A stretch of 64,000 nt of DNA from Thermoleophilia bacterium (GCA_028285405.1 JANQPH010000049.1:48671-112670), one strand, 5' to 3'; shown: positions 3,879-10,889, numbered from the stretch's first letter. Notes: generated by a model from the letters alone, not told the origin. Numbers and translations are program-made.

Positions 3879-5828
3879 ATGAGTCGGACCGGATCGTCCT
3901 TCACCACGTCCCGGGGCGGAGACGAGCGACGCAGACGCGTGCGCCGTCGCGCGGTCGGGGCCACGATCGCGGCCCTTGCGGTCGGCGCGCTCGTTCCCGC
4001 GGCCGCGAGCGCGAACTGGACGGAGCCTCAGACCGTCTGCACGAACTGCTCCGAGGGCGACGGGATCGTGAGCTACGCAGAGGCGCCGAACGGCGCCGCG
4101 GTCGCCGCGTGGAACGGAGATCGCAAGGCGCTCGCCGCCTACCGCGGCCCGAACGACGACGAGTTCGGCACGCCGTTCACGGTGGCCACGGGCGGCAAGC
4201 CGAGCTACGTGCGCGCGGCGATCAACTCCACCGGGACCGCCGCGGTCATGTCGAGCGCGGGCACCCAGAGCGTCGTCGCCCGCCGCGGCCCGAGCGACAG
4301 CAGCTGGAGCACGGCGTCCAGCCCGGGCGAGTGGCCCGCGGTCGCACCCGACGGCTCCGTCCTCGTGCTCGGCTGGGTCGCTCCCCTCAACGGGAGCCAG
4401 TCTGCCCAGATCTTCACCTGGCCGGCGAACGGCACCGCCTTCGGTGGCGGTACGACGCTCGGGACCCTCGCGGCGCCGTTCACCTTCCAGGAAGGCATCT
4501 ACCTGTCGAGCAACGGCCAGGGCGACTACGTCGCGACCTGGAACGCGCAGACGGGGACCCAGAGCACGGACCAGGCGTTCGCCTCGTACTCCTCGGACGG
4601 GACGACCTGGACCGCGCCCGAGGCGGTCGGCACCGGCTCAGCGGTCGAGACGACGGCCGTCGATCCGATGGGCAACGCCCTGGCGTTCTACGGCAACCCG
4701 GGGACGCCCGTGTATCGCTGGTACACGAACACGAGCTGGGGGAGCCCCGAGAGCATCCCGTTCGGCTCGTACCCGGCCCGAAACGGTGAGCTCGCTCCGT
4801 TGCCGTCGGCAGGGTTCGACCTCGTCGGCAACGCCGCAGCGCTGGGGCAGACGCCGAACGGTGCCGGGTGGGGCTACGCCGTCCGCCGCTACACGGACGG
4901 CACATGGACGACCAAGACGCTGCCCTCCTCCGGCACCTGGAAGCTCGGCGTCGGTCAGTCCGGCGACACGATCCTCGTTCGCTCGAACGGATCGAGCCTG
5001 ACCTCGCAGTGGGGCTCCTCGATCAACCCCAACGGCTTCAAGAACCAGGACGATCTGCCCGGCAGCGGCGTGCGCTCGCTGATCGGGGTCGGCCTCGACA
5101 TGAACAGCAACGCGACGGCTGTCTACTCCACGGCGCCCTCGGGCAGCCGTCTGGGGAGCGTGTTCGCGACGACCCGTCGTCCGGGCGCGGGCGGTGAGAT
5201 CCAGCTGACCGCCGGGCAGCTCGAGACCAACCAGAAGATCTCCCAGGCGGCGGTGTTGCGCTCGAACGGGGCGCTGTCGGCGCTCGAGGGCGGTCTCCCG
5301 GCGTCGGCATTCCGGGGAGCGGCCTTCGGGGCGCCGGCCTTCGGGTCGAGCGTTCCGATCACGGGGACCGCGGGGCCGTCGACACCGTCGAACGCGCCCG
5401 GCTACCAGGTTCCGGTTCCGTCGAAGACCGGCGGCGGGGGAACCGTGACGCTGTCGGCGGCCCAGCTCGAGACGAACCAGAAGATCTCCCAGGCGGCGGT
5501 GTTGCGCTCGAATGCGGTGCGGGATCGGCTCGCGGCCGGCCTCACGGCCGCGCAGATCGGCGCCGGGGCGATCTCGAGCGCGAGCCTGCTCCCGGGTCTC
5601 GGCTTCGGGGCCCTCGGGGCCGGGAGTCCGGGGACGCCGATCACCGTCCCGACCGGCGGCGGATCGGGCGGAACCGTGACGCTGTCGCAGCAGCAGCTCG
5701 AGACCAACCAGGCGATCTCTCAGGCCGCGGTGCGCCGGTCCAATCTGAACATCGCCCTCCTGGAGGCGGGGCTGACCCAGGACGGGATCGCGGCCGGGGG
5801 GATCTCGAGCCAGAACGTCAGTCCGTAG
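3879..5828 (+). CDS. Secreted protein with a propeller-like N-terminal region (one BNR/Asp-box) and three C-terminal helical repeats
   Basis: The signal peptide is RRAVGATIAALAVGALVPAAASA-NW, with RBS acggag upstream of ATG 3879. One Asp-box is present (SYSSDGTTWTAP). Three modules contain TVTLSxxQLETNQxISQAAVxRSN. Confidence 0.75.
   Translation: MSRTGSSFTTSRGGDERRRRVRRRAVGATIAALAVGALVPAAASANWTEPQTVCTNCSEGDGIVSYAEAPNGAAVAAWNGDRKALAAYRGPNDDEFGTPFTVATGGKPSYVRAAINSTGTAAVMSSAGTQSVVARRGPSDSSWSTASSPGEWPAVAPDGSVLVLGWVAPLNGSQSAQIFTWPANGTAFGGGTTLGTLAAPFTFQEGIYLSSNGQGDYVATWNAQTGTQSTDQAFASYSSDGTTWTAPEAVGTGSAVETTAVDPMGNALAFYGNPGTPVYRWYTNTSWGSPESIPFGSYPARNGELAPLPSAGFDLVGNAAALGQTPNGAGWGYAVRRYTDGTWTTKTLPSSGTWKLGVGQSGDTILVRSNGSSLTSQWGSSINPNGFKNQDDLPGSGVRSLIGVGLDMNSNATAVYSTAPSGSRLGSVFATTRRPGAGGEIQLTAGQLETNQKISQAAVLRSNGALSALEGGLPASAFRGAAFGAPAFGSSVPITGTAGPSTPSNAPGYQVPVPSKTGGGGTVTLSAAQLETNQKISQAAVLRSNAVRDRLAAGLTAAQIGAGAISSASLLPGLGFGALGAGSPGTPITVPTGGGSGGTVTLSQQQLETNQAISQAAVRRSNLNIALLEAGLTQDGIAAGGISSQNVSP
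5193..5750 (+). repeat. Three intragenic repeat modules (about 230-250 nt apart) with near-identical ~50-nt cores
   Basis: The cores cagctcgagaccaaccagaagatctcccaggcggcggtgttgcgctcgaa (about 5216-5266) and cagctcgagacgaaccagaagatctcccaggcggcggtgttgcgctcgaa (about 5463-5513) differ at one position. A third, more diverged copy lies at about 5693-5745. Confidence 0.85.
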
Positions 5829-5919: not shown

Positions 5920-6411
5920 GTGGCGATCCAGAGCCAGGGAACGCAGATCGGCGTCGTGAGATCCCGGATCACGAGGGCGCGGCCGCCGGTCCGCCAGGCG
6001 ACGTTCGAGGCGACCGGTGAGACGTCGACCTACGGCGTCCCCGGCGAGCAGGCCGAGTTCTACGGGATGCCGGCGACGGGGCCGCATCAGGAGCACGCGA
6101 GCACCTTCGACCACGTCCTCGGGGCATTGGCGGCGTGCCTGACCGGGACGTTCGGGCAGGCGCTCGCCGCCCGCGACATCGACGCGACCGGTGACCGACT
6201 GTCGGCGGTGGCGGAGGGCGATGTCGAGATCGACGACGACGGGGTGATGGTCATGCACCACGTCCGTGTCGCGTATCGCCTCGTTGCACCGGACGACAAG
6301 CGTGCCGCGGCCGAGCGGGCCCACGAGCACCACGTCAACGCGTGCGGGGTCGCCCGCTCGCTTCGCGCTGCACTCGACATCTCGACCGAGCTCGAGATCG
6401 TCGGCCCCTGA
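5920..6411 (+). CDS. OsmC/Ohr family peroxiredoxin-like protein
   Basis: Length of about 160 aa and the segments HVLGALAACLTGTFGQALAARDI and ERAHEHHVNACGVARSL fit the OsmC fold with its two conserved Cys. The GTG start follows gggaggg. Confidence 0.75.
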   Translation: MAIQSQGTQIGVVRSRITRARPPVRQATFEATGETSTYGVPGEQAEFYGMPATGPHQEHASTFDHVLGALAACLTGTFGQALAARDIDATGDRLSAVAEGDVEIDDDGVMVMHHVRVAYRLVAPDDKRAAAERAHEHHVNACGVARSLRAALDISTELEIVGP

Positions 6412-6416
6412 CACGC

Positions 6417-6629
6417 GTGGCGGTGCCCTCCGGCCGCGACTACGACCGTGGTCAGCGAATCGCCGGCGTCGTGTTCGTCGCGATCCTCGGCGTGGCGCTC
6501 ATCGGGGCAGCACTCGCCTACGGGGCGTCGGGGCGGTGGGAGCTCGCGGTACTGGTTGGCGGCGCGCTCGCGCTTCTTGCGTTCTTCGGCGGCGGCATCG
6601 TCGCCGCATCGCTCGCGCGCCAGCGCTGA
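6417..6629 (+). CDS. Small membrane protein (2 TM), hypothetical
   Basis: Two hydrophobic helices are present (IAGVVFVAILGVALIGAALA and LAVLVGGALALLAFFGGGIVAA). GC3 is high. The start could be GTG 6417 or 6423. No homology was recognised. Confidence 0.45.
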   Translation: MAVPSGRDYDRGQRIAGVVFVAILGVALIGAALAYGASGRWELAVLVGGALALLAFFGGGIVAASLARQR

Positions 6630-6822
6630 ACCCCTCGCCTCGCACCGGTCGCGGCTCCGTCCTGACGGAGCTCGTTCCCATCGGGATATTGCGCAAAGTG
6701 CCCGGGTGAGCAAGCGCCGGGCCGAAACGCGCGCGTAACGCTCAAGTCCAACGCTCAGGTGTCGATAGACGCGCAGGTTCTCCCCAGCCTGTCTCGGCTG
6801 CCACCTTCTGAAAGGGACTTGC

Positions 6823-7407
6823 ATGGGCTTCGTCCACCGAAAAGGCGTGCGCCTTGGAGTTGCCGCGATGGCGTCGCTCGTCGCCGTCAGCGCGCTCGTC
6901 TACCAGACGTCGACCGCGGCGTTCAGCGACACCACCGACAACGCCGGCAACAGCTGGGCCGCCGGGTCGGTGACGCTGACCGACAACGACGGTGGATCGG
7001 CGATGTTCACCTCGGCCAACATGGTTCCGGGTGATGTCGTCGAGAACTGCATCACAGTCGACTACACCGGGAGCACCTTCGATCTCGCGGCCGTGAAGCT
7101 CTACGGATCCGTCACCGACGGCGGGCTCGGGGGTGATCTGGATGTCGTCGTCGACGAGGGCACCGGCGGCGGCTTCGGAAACTGCACGGGCTTCACGGTG
7201 GGCCAGACGGTCTTCGCCAGCAACACCCTCAACGCGTTCGCCACCGCGCACAGCTCGTACGCCAACGGCGCGACCGGCTACACGCCGGCGGGCGGCTCGA
7301 CGTCCCGCACCTATCGGTTCCGGGTCACGCTCGGCTCGGACACGCCGAACTCTTCCCAGGGGACCAACGCCACGGCGACGTTCACCTGGGAGGTCCAGAG
7401 CGCCTAG
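6823..7407 (+). CDS. TasA/camelysin-like exported protein with a SipW-cognate-type signal peptide
   Basis: The N-terminus KGVRLGVAAMASLVAVSALVYQTSTAAFSDTTDNAGNSWAAGSVTL fits the T-x-A-x-F-S-D-T...N-x-x-x-A-G pattern of SipW-dependent substrates. The rest is a beta-rich mature domain of about 160 aa. A SipW-like peptidase gene lies directly downstream. Confidence 0.8.
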   Translation: MGFVHRKGVRLGVAAMASLVAVSALVYQTSTAAFSDTTDNAGNSWAAGSVTLTDNDGGSAMFTSANMVPGDVVENCITVDYTGSTFDLAAVKLYGSVTDGGLGGDLDVVVDEGTGGGFGNCTGFTVGQTVFASNTLNAFATAHSSYANGATGYTPAGGSTSRTYRFRVTLGSDTPNSSQGTNATATFTWEVQSA

Positions 7408-7479
7408 GCGCTCGCAGGAGCTCACCGCGCTCGGCCCGGCCCGCCCGCTCGGCGCGCCGGGCCGTGGCGTCGTCGCGCC

Positions 7480-9513
7480 ATGACCCCGACTCCGGCGCCG
7501 ATACCGCCCGCTCGCCCTCCGCCGCGTCGCAGGCTGGCGTGGACCTCGCGCGCGCACCACCTCGCCGAGTTCGCCGCGGTGACCTACTTCCTGGCGCTGC
7601 TCTGGTTGACCGTCTGGACGTTCGCGCCGTCGGTCTTCGGCCTGAGCCCGATCGCGATCTACGGCGGCTCGATGGAGCCGGCGATCGATCGCGGCGACAT
7701 CGTTCTCCTGGACCGCAGTCCGCCCGAGGCGGCCTTCGGGCCGGGCGGCATCGTCACCTACCGCGACCCCGCCATGCCGGACAGGGTGGTGACCCACCGC
7801 ATCGTCGACGTCGCCGACGGCGGTCGCTTCGTCACCAAGGGCGACGCCAACCGGGACCGGGACTCCACCCCCCTCGCTCGGGACGAGGTCATCGGCGCGG
7901 GCCGGATCGTCGTCCCCGCGCTCGGACTCCCTCGAGTCTGGCTGACGAGCGGGGACTGGCTTCGCCTGGGCGTGTGGGGCGCCGTGACGGCCGGGGCGCT
8001 CCTGATGGTGCTGTTCCCCGCGCGCACCCGCCGTCGTGCCGGGTTGGTCGAGAACGACACGCCGCGTCCCAGGCGGGCCGGCGTGCCCAAGCCGGCAACG
8101 GTCGGCGTGTTCGCCGGCCTCGGCGTCGCGGCCGCCGCCATCGCGATCATCGGCGTGAGCGCGGCGTTCTTCAGCGGCACGACGGCCACCGCCACGTCGT
8201 TCGAGGCATCCAAGAGCCTCTACAACCCGTACCGCGACGAGGCCCTCGCCGACCTGCCGGTGGCCTACTGGCGGCTCGGAGAGCAACCACCCGCCGGCGG
8301 GTCGGTCAACTTCTTCGACGACTTCGAGACCTTCTCGGGCTGGACCAACTATCTCGCCGGCACGTTTGCCGGGTCGAGCGATGTCGCCCGGAGTGGGAGC
8401 CAGAGCGGCATCAAGACGTCCAACAACGACCCCAACGGTGGCTGGAAGAGCATCGGGGGGACCGTCGGCAACGACTGGACGCTCGAGCTCTGGACCTATC
8501 GGCCCACCGGCTGGGTGGGCGGGAACCAGACCCGGGTCGGTGTCGAGAGCGGCGCCTTCAGCGGGTACTCGTTCGGCATCGACCACAACTCCAACAGCAT
8601 CTTCATCGACCGCCGACTCGCCGGCGCGGCGACCCGCATCACCACGGCCGTGCCGATGAACCCGCCCGAGGACGCGTGGTACCGCGTGACGCTCGTGCGC
8701 AACGGGAGCTCGATCGTCGCGACGGCCTACGACTCGTTGGGCACCCAGCTCGGCCAGGCGAGCGCGACCGACGCCACGTTCGCCAGCTACGACCGGGTCG
8801 TCGTCCACGGTGGCCACCAGTTCTACGTCGACGATCTCAGCGTCGTCGGGACGGGCGGCGGTGGTGGTGCCTACCCGCCGGCGGCGGACGAGCTGCTCAC
8901 CCATTCCGGGACCTATCAGGGCTCGCCCACCCTCGGGGTGCCGGGGCTCCTCGTCGGCGATCCGAACACCGCCGTCGACCTCGATGGCGCCAATGACTGG
9001 GTCAGCATCCCGGACTCGAGCGACATCAACACCTCGACTCAGGCCCAGCGATCCGTCGAGCTCTGGTTCTCGGCCGATTCGCTGAGCGGTCGCCAGGTGC
9101 TCTGGGAGGAGGGCGGCGGCACGAACGGCCTCGCGATCTACCTGGACGGCGCGACGCTCTACGGGCGCGCCTGGTCGAAGGGCAACAACTGGAGCAATCC
9201 CCTCCAGATCACCGCGCCCGTCACCACCGGGACGCGGTTCCACGTTGTCGTGGCTCTCGACGCAACCGGCAACCTGATGACGATGTACGTCGACGGGACT
9301 GCCGTCGGGACCGCCACCAAGACGGACGGCCTCGTCCTGGCCTCCCACGGCGGCGACATCGGCATCGGGGCGCTCAACGGAGGCACCGAGTTCCACGACG
9401 GCGTCGCGTCGGGCAGCGGGCGCCAGTTCGACGGCGTCGTCGACGAGGTGGCGGTCTACAACTCCGTCCTGAGCGCCGCGCGCGTCGAGACCCACTGGGC
9501 CGCCGCCAGCTAG
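7480..9513 (+). CDS. SipW-type (S26B, ER/archaeal-type) signal peptidase I fused to a second signal-like segment and two LamG/concanavalin-like domains
   Basis: Peptidase motifs are YGGSMEPAIDRGDIV, VTHRIV and TKGDANRDRD, flanked by TM helices. At aa ~205-242, VGVFAGLGVAAAAIAIIGVSAAFFSGTTATATSFEA mimics the TasA-like signal. Two LamG-like domains follow (AYWRLGE...; DLDGANDWVSIPD...VELWF...HVVVALD...MYVDG...FDGVVDEVAVYN). No stop codon occurs anywhere in the 677 codons. Confidence 0.85.
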   Translation: MTPTPAPIPPARPPPRRRLAWTSRAHHLAEFAAVTYFLALLWLTVWTFAPSVFGLSPIAIYGGSMEPAIDRGDIVLLDRSPPEAAFGPGGIVTYRDPAMPDRVVTHRIVDVADGGRFVTKGDANRDRDSTPLARDEVIGAGRIVVPALGLPRVWLTSGDWLRLGVWGAVTAGALLMVLFPARTRRRAGLVENDTPRPRRAGVPKPATVGVFAGLGVAAAAIAIIGVSAAFFSGTTATATSFEASKSLYNPYRDEALADLPVAYWRLGEQPPAGGSVNFFDDFETFSGWTNYLAGTFAGSSDVARSGSQSGIKTSNNDPNGGWKSIGGTVGNDWTLELWTYRPTGWVGGNQTRVGVESGAFSGYSFGIDHNSNSIFIDRRLAGAATRITTAVPMNPPEDAWYRVTLVRNGSSIVATAYDSLGTQLGQASATDATFASYDRVVVHGGHQFYVDDLSVVGTGGGGGAYPPAADELLTHSGTYQGSPTLGVPGLLVGDPNTAVDLDGANDWVSIPDSSDINTSTQAQRSVELWFSADSLSGRQVLWEEGGGTNGLAIYLDGATLYGRAWSKGNNWSNPLQITAPVTTGTRFHVVVALDATGNLMTMYVDGTAVGTATKTDGLVLASHGGDIGIGALNGGTEFHDGVASGSGRQFDGVVDEVAVYNSVLSAARVETHWAAAS

Positions 9514-9545
9514 GGGTCGGAGGGCGGGACCGAACCCATCTGGAC

Positions 9546-10889
9546 CTACTTCGGCTCTGGCACCACCGGCGGCGGCTCCCAGGGTCCATCGAGGGCCGCC
9601 GGCTCGGGCCAGTAGATCCGGAGCGCGAGGTAGAAGGGCCCGGTCGGCGCAGGCAACCAGTTCGCCGCGGCGACGGCGTCGTCGGGTCGCGTGTTCTGGA
9701 TGTGGATCGTCAACGATCCGTCGTCGCCGAGGACGAGGCCTTGGGTCGTCGAGTTGATCAGGTATCGGTCGATCGGGTTGTCGACGAGGTACCCGGCGAC
9801 CCCGTCGTAGGACGTGTCGTAGAGCGTGACCGACCAGAAGGCCTTCGCCGGCGGTGGGGTGGCAAACCGAAGCGTGTAGCGGCGACTGCCATCGAGCTGT
9901 TGCTCCTTCGAGTCGATTCGGGTGAGTGGGTACGACGCCTCGGCGCGATCGTTGCCCCCCCAGCCCGCCATGGCACCCGCTGCCCGCAACAGGTAGTCGC
10001 CACCGAAGAAGACGCGATCTCCGAAGGCGTCCGATGCGGTCCACCCGTTGACCGTCCGACCCAGGTGCTTGGCACGATCGGCGATCTTGCTCCGCGCCGA
10101 CTCGACTCCCGAGCGGATGGCGTCACGACTCTCTGCCCCGAGCGCCTCGGCCTCGAAGGGACGCCTCGGCCCGATCCCGATCCTCGAGAACCGCTCCAGC
10201 AGCTCCTGCTCAGATTGCGGTGGCGGTCGGCACCAGTCGAGCAGGACGTTCAAGTACCCGATGAACCGCTCGTCGCGTGACGCGGCATCGTCCCAGGCGG
10301 GCCAGTCCACGAGTGCTGCCGGGCTCGGTGCACCTGCTCCCGTGAGCGCGGACAGCGGCGTCAGCCGGTAGCCGCTCATGACGTCGCCCAAGCGGTCGTC
10401 GTCGGGCCCGAGGAGCTGCGTGCGACCGATGACGAAGGCGAGGTTGGTCTCGAGAGGGAGCACGCGGTCGACCTGGCTCGGGACTTCTCCACTCCACGCG
10501 GGTCCGGCGAGCGCGTAACGCCCGGCCTCCTGGCCCGTTGCCCGAGAGCCGACGTAGTGTGCGTTCTGCCCGAAGAGATCCTCGATCTGCATGACGTAGT
10601 ACCGGTCTCGGACCGCGGGGACCTCGAGGACGATCGGCTCGGCGCGTAGGTCGACAGTTGCGAGTGAGTACGGCGTATCGGCGTTCGGTGTGATGACGTC
10701 CCGAAAGCTCGGGCCGAGGGTGATGGGCTCTCCCGTGAATGTGTTGAGTGGTCCGCGGTAGCCGGGAGAGGTGGGGACGATGAACGCACCGAACGCGTAG
10801 CGGTAACCCATGAGCATCGGGAACGCGTAGACGTAGGCGTCCTCGGCGATGGCCGAGATCTCTTCGAGGATTGGGGCGGAGTCCGTCAC
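9546..10889 (-). CDS. DUF1254/DUF1214 domain-containing protein
   Basis: The N-terminus AEDAYVYAFPMLMGYRY...NADTPYSLATVDLRAEPIVLEVPAVRDRYYVMQIEDLF is typical of DUF1254. The C-terminal half (GGDYLLRAAGAMAGWGGN...FWSVTLYD...NWLPAP) is typical of DUF1214. The start is GTG. Confidence 0.8.
   Translation of the reverse strand: MTDSAPILEEISAIAEDAYVYAFPMLMGYRYAFGAFIVPTSPGYRGPLNTFTGEPITLGPSFRDVITPNADTPYSLATVDLRAEPIVLEVPAVRDRYYVMQIEDLFGQNAHYVGSRATGQEAGRYALAGPAWSGEVPSQVDRVLPLETNLAFVIGRTQLLGPDDDRLGDVMSGYRLTPLSALTGAGAPSPAALVDWPAWDDAASRDERFIGYLNVLLDWCRPPPQSEQELLERFSRIGIGPRRPFEAEALGAESRDAIRSGVESARSKIADRAKHLGRTVNGWTASDAFGDRVFFGGDYLLRAAGAMAGWGGNDRAEASYPLTRIDSKEQQLDGSRRYTLRFATPPPAKAFWSVTLYDTSYDGVAGYLVDNPIDRYLINSTTQGLVLGDDGSLTIHIQNTRPDDAVAAANWLPAPTGPFYLALRIYWPEPAALDGPWEPPPVVPEPK

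Follow-up and report, generated by a model that had tools for sequence, protein, structure and literature searches.

We describe here a pair of adjacent genes on the plus strand of a 64,000-nucleotide (nt) stretch of DNA from a Thermoleophilia bacterium (GCA_028285405.1, JANQPH010000049.1:48671-112670; G+C about 70%), hereafter the window, whose numbering is used for all positions. Gene 1 (6823-7407) is an open reading frame (ORF) of 194 amino acids (aa) for a predicted TasA-family (camelysin-like) fibre subunit, and gene 2 (7480-9513), with 677 codons and no internal stop, encodes in a single frame a SipW-like signal peptidase, an internal signal segment and a tandem LamG cargo. On balance, we consider it reasonably probable that the two genes form a minimal TasA-type fibre module, in which the peptidase would free its own cargo and the cargo would nucleate, cap or anchor the fibre. 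An earlier reading made from the sequence alone (the sequence-only reading) had named both ORFs, the peptidase motifs GGSMEP, THRIV and TKGDAN and an in-frame GTG at 8083 (Val202), all of which we located. It had also read gene 2 as a SipW-type peptidase joined in one chain to a protein with a SipW-substrate-like signal, and this central claim is supported by the conserved fusion, an invariant motif, the profile scores of orthologs, a natural split form and the topology.

The peptidase part of the gene 2 protein (aa 46-154) matched the model TIGR02228 (sigpep_I_arch) at 67.1 bits, with a cutoff of 51.85, and Pfam Peptidase_S26 at 13.5 bits only. With NF046067, the equivalog model of Bacillus SipW, it gave 50.6 bits where the cutoff is 190, indicating that the window peptidase is SipW-like in kind and not an ortholog of SipW. 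The catalytic residues are Ser64 in GGSMEP (nt 7669), His106 in THRIV (nt 7795) and Asp122 in TKGDAN (nt 7843), a Ser-His(-Asp) set in place of the LepB-type Ser-Lys dyad; the Ser, the His and the Asp of GDxN were invariant in 37 fused relatives from the wider search described below and nearly invariant in the orthologs. Judged by these matches and residues, the N-terminal part of gene 2 is an archaeal or endoplasmic reticulum (ER)-type (S26B) signal peptidase with intact catalytic residues and predicted activity. The closest peptidase relative outside the orthologs (P0138, 364 aa) is made up of two entire SipW-like peptidase domains placed one behind the other, and SGSM/SESM, HR and GDAN motifs are present in both; this is a different kind of fusion in the same clade.

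Hydropathy and charge counts gave a topology with three transmembrane (TM) helices. The N-terminus (aa 1-27), with five K/R and no D/E, is placed in the cytoplasm (N-in) and together with TM1 (aa 28-46) occupies 7480-7617. The catalytic domain (aa 47-162; 7618-7965) lies outside, bracketed by TM1 and TM2 (aa 163-181) as had been read from the sequence, and TM2 with the basic cytoplasmic loop behind it (aa 182-207; eight K/R and two D/E) covers 7966-8100. TM3 (aa 208-226; 8101-8157) has the top hydropathy in the protein (2.43), and everything after it (aa 227-677) is outside. This topology follows the positive-inside rule, and the three-TM pattern was present in 14 of 14 orthologs. The basic loop equals the n-region and TM3 the h-region of a predicted internal SipW-type signal peptide; loop, TM3 and V-S-A-A in succession give the n-h-c layout typical of a signal peptide, and the end of the TM3 segment comes to lie on the same membrane face as the active site.

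The segment in question reads ...IIGVSAAFFSGTTATATSFEA... at aa 222-243, and the predicted cleavage site with its donor-strand-like N-terminus, S227-A-A229/F230-F231-SGTTATATSFEA, lies at 8158-8208 (a slash marks a predicted cut here and below). When 11 homologs were aligned, A229 and F231 behind TM3 were invariant, while the loop preceding TM3 was poorly conserved. The alignment makes A229 the most likely P1 and F231 the most likely P2' residue, with a predicted cut between A229 and F230; a cut one residue earlier, VSA/AFF, is equally possible. The segment has a small-x-small pattern at P3/P1, as has the predicted cleaved signal of the subunit. We built a hidden Markov model (HMM) from 100 TasA-like N-termini, covering positions -22 to +24 around the A-A-F motif, and searched this TasA-N-terminus HMM against the fused proteins and against reversed and shuffled decoys, the best of which gave 4.3 bits. 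Four orthologs scored well above the decoys (P0003, 23.6 bits; P0007, 23.0 bits; P0008, 21.3 bits; P0004, 15.4 bits). It is from these scores at the aligned columns, and from the invariance of A229 and F231, that the window segment is assigned as a signal. A model of the mature side only (P3 to P24') also matched fused proteins, at up to 23 bits, indicating that the likeness reaches about 13 residues past the scissile bond, beyond what a cleavage site needs. In common between the predicted mature N-termini of cargo and subunit are a Phe at P2', Thr-Thr at P5'-P6' and a distal aromatic residue at P12'-P13'.

Two proteins without a peptidase carry this segment at the N-terminus. At one Acidimicrobiales locus from a metagenome-assembled genome (MAG), L012, the LamG protein is a stand-alone gene of 500 aa with an ordinary N-terminal signal peptide ending in ...ATLSMSLAAFGSTTANAGNTYSA; the motif has the same placement relative to the first LamG-like domain as in the window, and the N-terminus scored 19.1 bits with the TasA-N-terminus HMM. 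A second non-peptidase homolog, P0011, carries an N-terminal signal of the same class (LTLASFSNTTQNPANSF). These two proteins indicate that what is an internal segment in the window protein has homologs elsewhere that are genuine N-terminal signal peptides.

We further examined how widely the fusion is kept. Gene 2 has nine full-length database homologs (P0002-P0010; 37-76% identity), and since it is conserved at full length in independent assemblies, it is a real coding sequence and not a chance ORF of high-GC DNA. A scan of species-representative genomes found the two-gene cassette at 13 Acidimicrobiales MAG loci (Ilumatobacteraceae, Microthrixaceae and unclassified), and at all 13 the peptidase and LamG parts were in one frame with a TasA-like gene immediately upstream. 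Flanking genes differ among the loci, so that the conserved unit is the two-gene cassette itself. Both the fused and the split form that had been envisaged for homologs thus occur, the former at these 13 loci and the latter in L012. The concern that an assembly error or a frameshift joined two genes has some ground in a high-GC genome with long spurious ORFs, such as the antisense ORF of 1100 aa (6742-10044) that overlaps the region and is itself a high-GC artefact. However, 13 independent MAG assemblies, the complete isolate genome of Saxibacter everestensis (CP090958) and dozens of representatives from metagenomes all show the same in-frame fusion. The artefact is effectively refuted, and the ORF as assembled runs unbroken through 8000-8100, where the sequence-only reading had named a stop or frameshift as what would undo its self-processing idea.

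An open frame could still yield two products, a peptidase and a separate LamG preprotein, if translation also began internally. The GTG at 8083, which had been put forward as such a start, is in frame and upstream of TM3, the cargo stands alone in L012, and Actinobacteria tolerate non-Shine-Dalgarno and leaderless initiation. Yet the GTG is preceded by no Shine-Dalgarno-like sequence, start codons in the loop are not conserved, and three loci (L004, L009 and L015) have no in-frame ATG, GTG or TTG between TM2 and TM3 at all. Nor does a Shine-Dalgarno-like sequence stand before any candidate in the loop, the weak GGTG, GGGA or GGAG matches being found only before candidates in or next to a TM segment. 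Moreover, every one of the 14 orthologs and no fewer than 37 additional fused representatives keep the frame open across the junction, which two independent products would not need. No internal start is conserved, and we regard internal initiation as very improbable. Stop-codon readthrough between gene 1 and gene 2 was likewise considered and rejected: the two genes share a frame with a single stop between them at five of 14 loci (the window, with its stop at 7405-7407/7408, L004, L008, L015 and L016), about the one third that chance predicts.

The cargo was characterised by structure prediction and profile searches. An AlphaFold2 (AF2) model of gene 2, built on an alignment of 11 sequences (mean predicted local distance difference test, pLDDT, 74), contains two well-predicted beta-sandwiches, with pLDDT 75-93 in the first and 85-96 in the second. 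The second, C-terminal domain (aa ~470-677, with the stop codon 8887-9513) matched Pfam Laminin_G_3 (PF13385) at 72.8-78.7 bits, against 27.6. The first, a concanavalin/LamG-like jelly-roll (aa ~258-458; 8251-8853) with the motifs WRLGE, DDFETF and NNDPNGGW, gave no Pfam match when searched alone. With Foldseek, the gene 2 model was matched to tandem LG pairs (laminin alpha2 LG4-5 and neurexin L2-L3; E 2e-11) across some 380-450 alignment columns. The earlier call of two LamG domains is thus borne out, for domain 2 by Pfam and for domain 1 by structure, and on the predicted structure the description of the cargo as two LamG-like domains holds. The relation of this cargo to TapA is proposed as a functional analogy only; the one related signal from the TapA model TIGR04087 was a weak match (E 0.096) that falls on the signal region of P0250, a distantly related fused protein.

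The first jelly-roll also has a distribution of its own. Homologs 31-40% identical to it, recognised by DDFETF and NNDPNGGW, turn up in archaea as well as in distant phyla (L017-L025: Bacteroidales, Archaeoglobus, Methanosarcinales, Chromatiaceae, Methyloprofundus and Eisenbacteria MAGs), and near these homologs neither TasA-like nor peptidase genes were found. To judge from sequence comparison, this domain is a mobile, uncharacterised LamG-like family.

For gene 1, the sequence-only reading had proposed a TasA/camelysin-like protein. The gene 1 protein has 370 homologs, several of which match Pfam PF12389 (Peptidase_M73), and names among them include 'TasA family protein [Acidimicrobiales]', 'Camelysin-like' and 'peptide with SipW-like signal peptide'. 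Its signal peptide comprises aa 1-32, with a predicted SipW-type cut at TSTA32/A33-F34-SDTTDNAGNSW, and the predicted mature protein begins at nt 6919. The signal motif TSTA/AFSDTTDNAGNSW is present, and A32, A33 and F34 are invariant in the orthologs. The 68 bits that the N-terminus scored with the TasA-N-terminus HMM are a self-match, P0018 (the database call of gene 1) and close homologs being among the sequences used to build it. The AF2 model is an all-beta jelly-roll (pLDDT 80), and a Foldseek search with it returned the archaeal TasA homolog AbpA (7ueg) at E 3e-3 and probability 0.92, outranked by viral jelly-rolls; the family profile reached TasA structures 8aur and 5of1 in the PDB at E 0.07-0.1 only. 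The matches to viral jelly-rolls and to the MS2 coat protein, which rank as high or higher, look generic or compositional. Mainly on family-level evidence, we accept gene 1 as a probable TasA-family subunit, in line with the earlier proposal.

We then asked whether the fusion extends beyond the orthologs. The peptidase part (aa 1-200) was run through phmmer against a set of 1.84 billion cluster representatives, and the 149 best relatives besides the window protein were evaluated. Ninety-nine of these exceed 260 aa in length and 62 exceed 400 aa, the longest having 1503 aa, and most carry the peptidase at the N-terminus. In 37 of the 99 long relatives and in none of the 50 short ones, the TasA-N-terminus HMM gave a significant match to an internal TasA-type signal closely following the peptidase, examples being ...PRTAAAFSATTTNPANSWQAGS and ...HAAFSDSTVNSGNSLAAA; 37 of 99 is a lower bound, as P0151, P0158 and others show the motif by eye and score low. 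The cargos behind these signals vary. Pfam recognised CBM96 (9), fn3 (5), Laminin_G_3 (3), FG-GAP (2), RCC1, CBM_2 and CARDB; NCBIfam matches were DNRLRE, OmpL47-type and weak TafC-like ones, the last at the C-termini of P0257 and P0285; and beta-propeller cargos were found as well. Three fused relatives were looked up in their genomic context, in the complete genome of S. everestensis, in an Ilumatobacter MAG and on a JGI contig (with a 1502-aa beta-propeller cargo), and in all three a TasA-like gene lay immediately upstream, scoring 43-56 bits with the TasA-N-terminus HMM. In S. everestensis, a cultured organism whose fused protein is WP_349638927.1 (locus L026), the subunit reads ...SQA/AFTADTRNSGNAWSSG and the cargo ...ADA/AFTDRTSTSGNSWQVA. 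Public names of the fused proteins are 'signal peptidase I' or 'hypothetical protein' only, and literature searches found no description of a peptidase-cargo fusion. Rather than an unusual variant, as first supposed, the fused layout is widespread and has varied cargos; from its sequence relatives it is apparently a broad, modular, unannotated and undescribed class in Actinomycetota.

The variety of cargos bears on one further explanation, in which the LamG domains would be no substrate but an accessory part of the enzyme that might bind a cell-wall glycopolymer and so place or regulate the peptidase, with the signal-like linker left as a functionless remnant of the fusion. LamG, CBM96 and CBM_2 are indeed carbohydrate-binding folds. 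But A229 and F231 are invariant within a poorly conserved linker, and the motif is kept across unrelated cargos (FG-GAP, RCC1 and fn3), where a remnant would decay. We consider an accessory module with a vestigial linker quite improbable.

Several results weigh against the reading of gene 1 and gene 2 as a fibre module with a self-freed cargo. The internal segment of the window protein was significant neither with the signal model TIGR04088 nor with the TasA-N-terminus HMM, where it gave 2.8 bits at the aligned internal position, below the best decoy. It diverges from the consensus: P1' is F, the Asn residues are missing, and the distal aromatic comes one residue sooner. TIGR04088 also found no match in ten fused relatives, and this 34-residue model seems too weak or filtered for the purpose. 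For the earlier statement that the segment mimics the signal of the upstream gene, the orthologs and the invariant A229 and F231 speak in favour; the window copy scored by itself is not significant. Gene 1 fell just under the Pfam and NCBIfam cutoffs for the window sequence (PF12389, 21.8 bits against a gathering score of 22.5; TIGR04088, 13.6 bits against a cutoff of 19), and for the SipW-cognate pattern seen at its N-terminus it is the invariant TSTA/AF motif that speaks; its structural matches in Foldseek were weak, with a TM-score of about 0.3. The TapA model TIGR04087 gave no match in the window protein. In a comparison of cargo and pilin N-termini from 14 genomes, identity was 5.64 of 16 positions within the same genome and 5.10 of 16 with other genomes, and there was therefore no co-evolution signal for a common acceptor groove. 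The AF2 model has pLDDT below 50 for aa 180-248 and is uninformative on the docking of the site into the active site. Finally, cleavage, its exact position, its course in cis or in trans, the donor-strand role and the ligand are all things that we infer.

Some of these features would suit the main rival explanation, an uncleaved anchor, in which TM3 would remain in the membrane for good as a third helix and keep the LamG domains attached to the peptidase at the membrane surface. The A-A-F...F motif would then be a tethered strand, as in a fused TafF-like anchor, or a pseudo-substrate or regulator lodged in the active site. A TM helix that leads into a jelly-roll is similar to TafF, the proposed Tafi anchor (PMC12337348), and the window motif is off consensus, with its F at P1' and its low score, in a region where AF2 is uninformative. 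On the other hand, the window segment has the full n-h-c layout with small-x-small at P3/P1 as in the subunit signal, stand-alone homologs carry an identical motif behind an ordinary N-terminal signal, and the catalytic residues are intact. ER-type signal peptidases, moreover, cut internal N-in/C-out signal sequences in viral polyproteins. The comparative sequence data disfavour an uncleaved anchor, which we consider unlikely.

We therefore return to the module with a self-freed cargo and propose how it might work. Gene 1 would supply the major fibre subunit, and gene 2 a dedicated SipW-like peptidase together with a cargo. The precursor would insert through Sec with three helices, and because TM3 would be oriented N-in/C-out, the site ...S-A-A/F-F-S... 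would be found at the outer membrane face beside the active site. There the SipW-like site would cut the precursor of about 71 kDa behind the small-x-small residues that close TM3. Made in cis or by an adjacent peptidase molecule, the cut would free a tandem LamG cargo of about 448 residues (about 47 kDa) and leave TM3 on the enzyme. This first part of the model, insertion, cut and release of the cargo, is fairly well supported. The second part, the donor strand and the role as nucleator, tip or anchor, we infer by analogy with known fibres. The new N-terminus of the cargo, (A/F)-F-S-x-T-T...aromatic, would copy the N-terminal donor strand of the subunit. No TasA-like acceptor domain follows it, so the cargo could donate and not receive a strand, which would put it at a fibre end in the part of nucleator, tip or anchor. 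It may thus act on the fibre as TapA acts on TasA, by nucleation, capping or anchoring, with the LamG domains binding a carbohydrate or surface ligand, and the fusion would set the cargo at one copy per peptidase, scarce relative to the subunit. That the enzyme is conserved while the distal module varies also speaks for such a role, since tip or anchor proteins would be expected to show this pattern.

This model follows what has been described for TasA fibres. In TasA, residues 28-38 make up the donor strand and the hydrophobic anchors are F29 and F39; the N-terminus of TapA is similar to this strand (PMC9674648). By donating its N-terminus, TapA sets polymerisation going; its abundance is as low as that of SipW, and the stop and start codons of tapA and sipW overlap, the two genes being translationally coupled (PMC10151520). 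An aromatic residue (Phe) at P2' makes TasA a poor substrate of LepB, so that SipW is needed (PMC10269814), and the strict P2' Phe in both cargo and subunit of the window fits this published dependence. The window cassette and tapA-sipW-tasA of B. subtilis are alike in an archaeal/ER-type Ser-His peptidase, a (for the window, probable) TasA-family jelly-roll subunit, a P2' Phe and genes that lie together, and presumably also in a second, scarce substrate whose N-terminus mimics the donor strand, the cargo taking this part in the window. They differ in that the putative second substrate of the window continues in frame from the C-terminus of the peptidase, preceded by a predicted internal signal peptide, that it is a tandem LamG protein and not a TapA homolog, that the subunit gene comes first, that the peptidase is not an ortholog of SipW, and that the hosts of the fused cassette are Acidimicrobiia and other Actinomycetota.

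Archaeal systems offer a second comparison. The Tafi (TafA/E pilin, TafC tip, TafF anchor and TafD peptidase) and AbpA/AbpB (bundling pili) fibres are built from TasA-like jelly-rolls by donor-strand exchange (PMC12337348, PMC9245690), and loci of archaeal TasA-superfamily pili combine variable, multi-domain tip or anchor proteins with a conserved, dedicated signal peptidase (PMC12337348). There, however, peptidase, tip and anchor are separate genes, no fusion of a peptidase to a structural protein has been reported, and the Tafi subunits use Tat. With the TIGR04088 class and the sipW-calY1-calY2 genes of B. cereus, the window shares its putative signal class, a hydrophobic core followed by small-x-Ala/Ala-Phe-(S/T/N)-D-x-T...N-x-F, and substrates encoded beside the peptidase; the TIGR04088 signals are N-terminal and belong to separate proteins, whereas the window signal is internal, at residue ~200-230 of the peptidase chain, and the window copies score under the model cutoff. 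A mechanistic analogy, and that only, is given by the ER signal peptidase (Sec11 family), a homologous Ser-His enzyme that cuts viral polyproteins, as multi-spanning precursors, behind an internal hydrophobic segment oriented N-in/C-out and so frees a lumenal or extracytoplasmic domain. In that case enzyme and substrate are separate chains, whereas in the window the enzyme is the N-terminal part of the precursor.

The surroundings of the cassette were analysed as well. Database gene calls for the window contig begin late, P0001 for gene 2 with 644 aa from Val34, and P0018 with 179 aa from Met16, whereby the charged n-region is lost. The alignment of orthologs favours ATG 7480 and ATG 6823 as starts, the former because the ortholog P0002 shares this N-terminus. 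A GC-rich spacer of 72 nt (7408-7479) separates the two genes, compared with only 0-15 nt in the orthologous cassettes; it is predicted to form hairpins (fold of -51 kcal/mol over 86 nt; z = -1.84 against shuffled sequences, not significant), and, speculatively, it could tune the ratio of subunit to peptidase expression. Scanning of 6300-9700 found no sigma-70-like promoter, and the sole terminator-like site there lay on the minus strand inside a gene, at chance level. A search of the 64-kb window found no SipW-type substrates besides gene 1.

Next to the cassette lie genes for an OsmC-like protein (5920-6411, plus strand) and a DUF1254/DUF1214 protein (9546-10889, minus strand), neither of which is kept beside it elsewhere. 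Further upstream, 3879-5828 (plus strand) encodes a predicted secreted protein of 649 aa with an ordinary AAASA/NW-type signal and three C-terminal repeats, L(T/S)AxQLETNQ(K/A)ISQAAV(L/R)RSN; it had no Pfam or NCBIfam match and is absent beside the cassette at the other loci. At two Ilumatobacteraceae loci, L001 (4349-6653) and L002 (4257-6963), genes for an FtsX-type permease and an ABC-ATPase (MacB-like) lie divergently upstream of the cassette, and this pair is absent from the window and from L003.

The wider class invites a bolder version of the model, which we hold to be possible, though doubtful: many Actinomycetota would make TasA-type fibres, joined by donor strands, with a two-gene kit whose peptidase, produced in fusion with the nucleator, tip or anchor protein, first cuts its own cargo in cis and so releases exactly one fibre-initiating adhesin, with swappable domains (LamG, CBM96, FG-GAP, fn3 or beta-propeller) setting the target of adhesion. 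If true, maturation of the enzyme would be coupled to release of a single fibre-initiating adhesin. An enzyme that carries its own substrate would make a test system for the action of type I signal peptidases in cis, for specificity set by P'-side residues such as a P2' Phe, and for control of the nucleator-to-subunit ratio. Interchangeable cargos behind a constant peptidase and signal point to a general cassette for export and attachment, which might be exploited for surface display. The labels 'signal peptidase I' and 'hypothetical' conceal a secreted, adhesin-like protein within an enzyme annotation, and the fusion would act as a built-in genetic label for the second substrate of a SipW-type peptidase, probably a fibre-end protein. 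Such a label may be useful where experimental knowledge is lacking, as in the Acidimicrobiia (Ilumatobacteraceae and Microthrixaceae), which are mostly known from MAGs, and may there help research into aggregation and biofilms.

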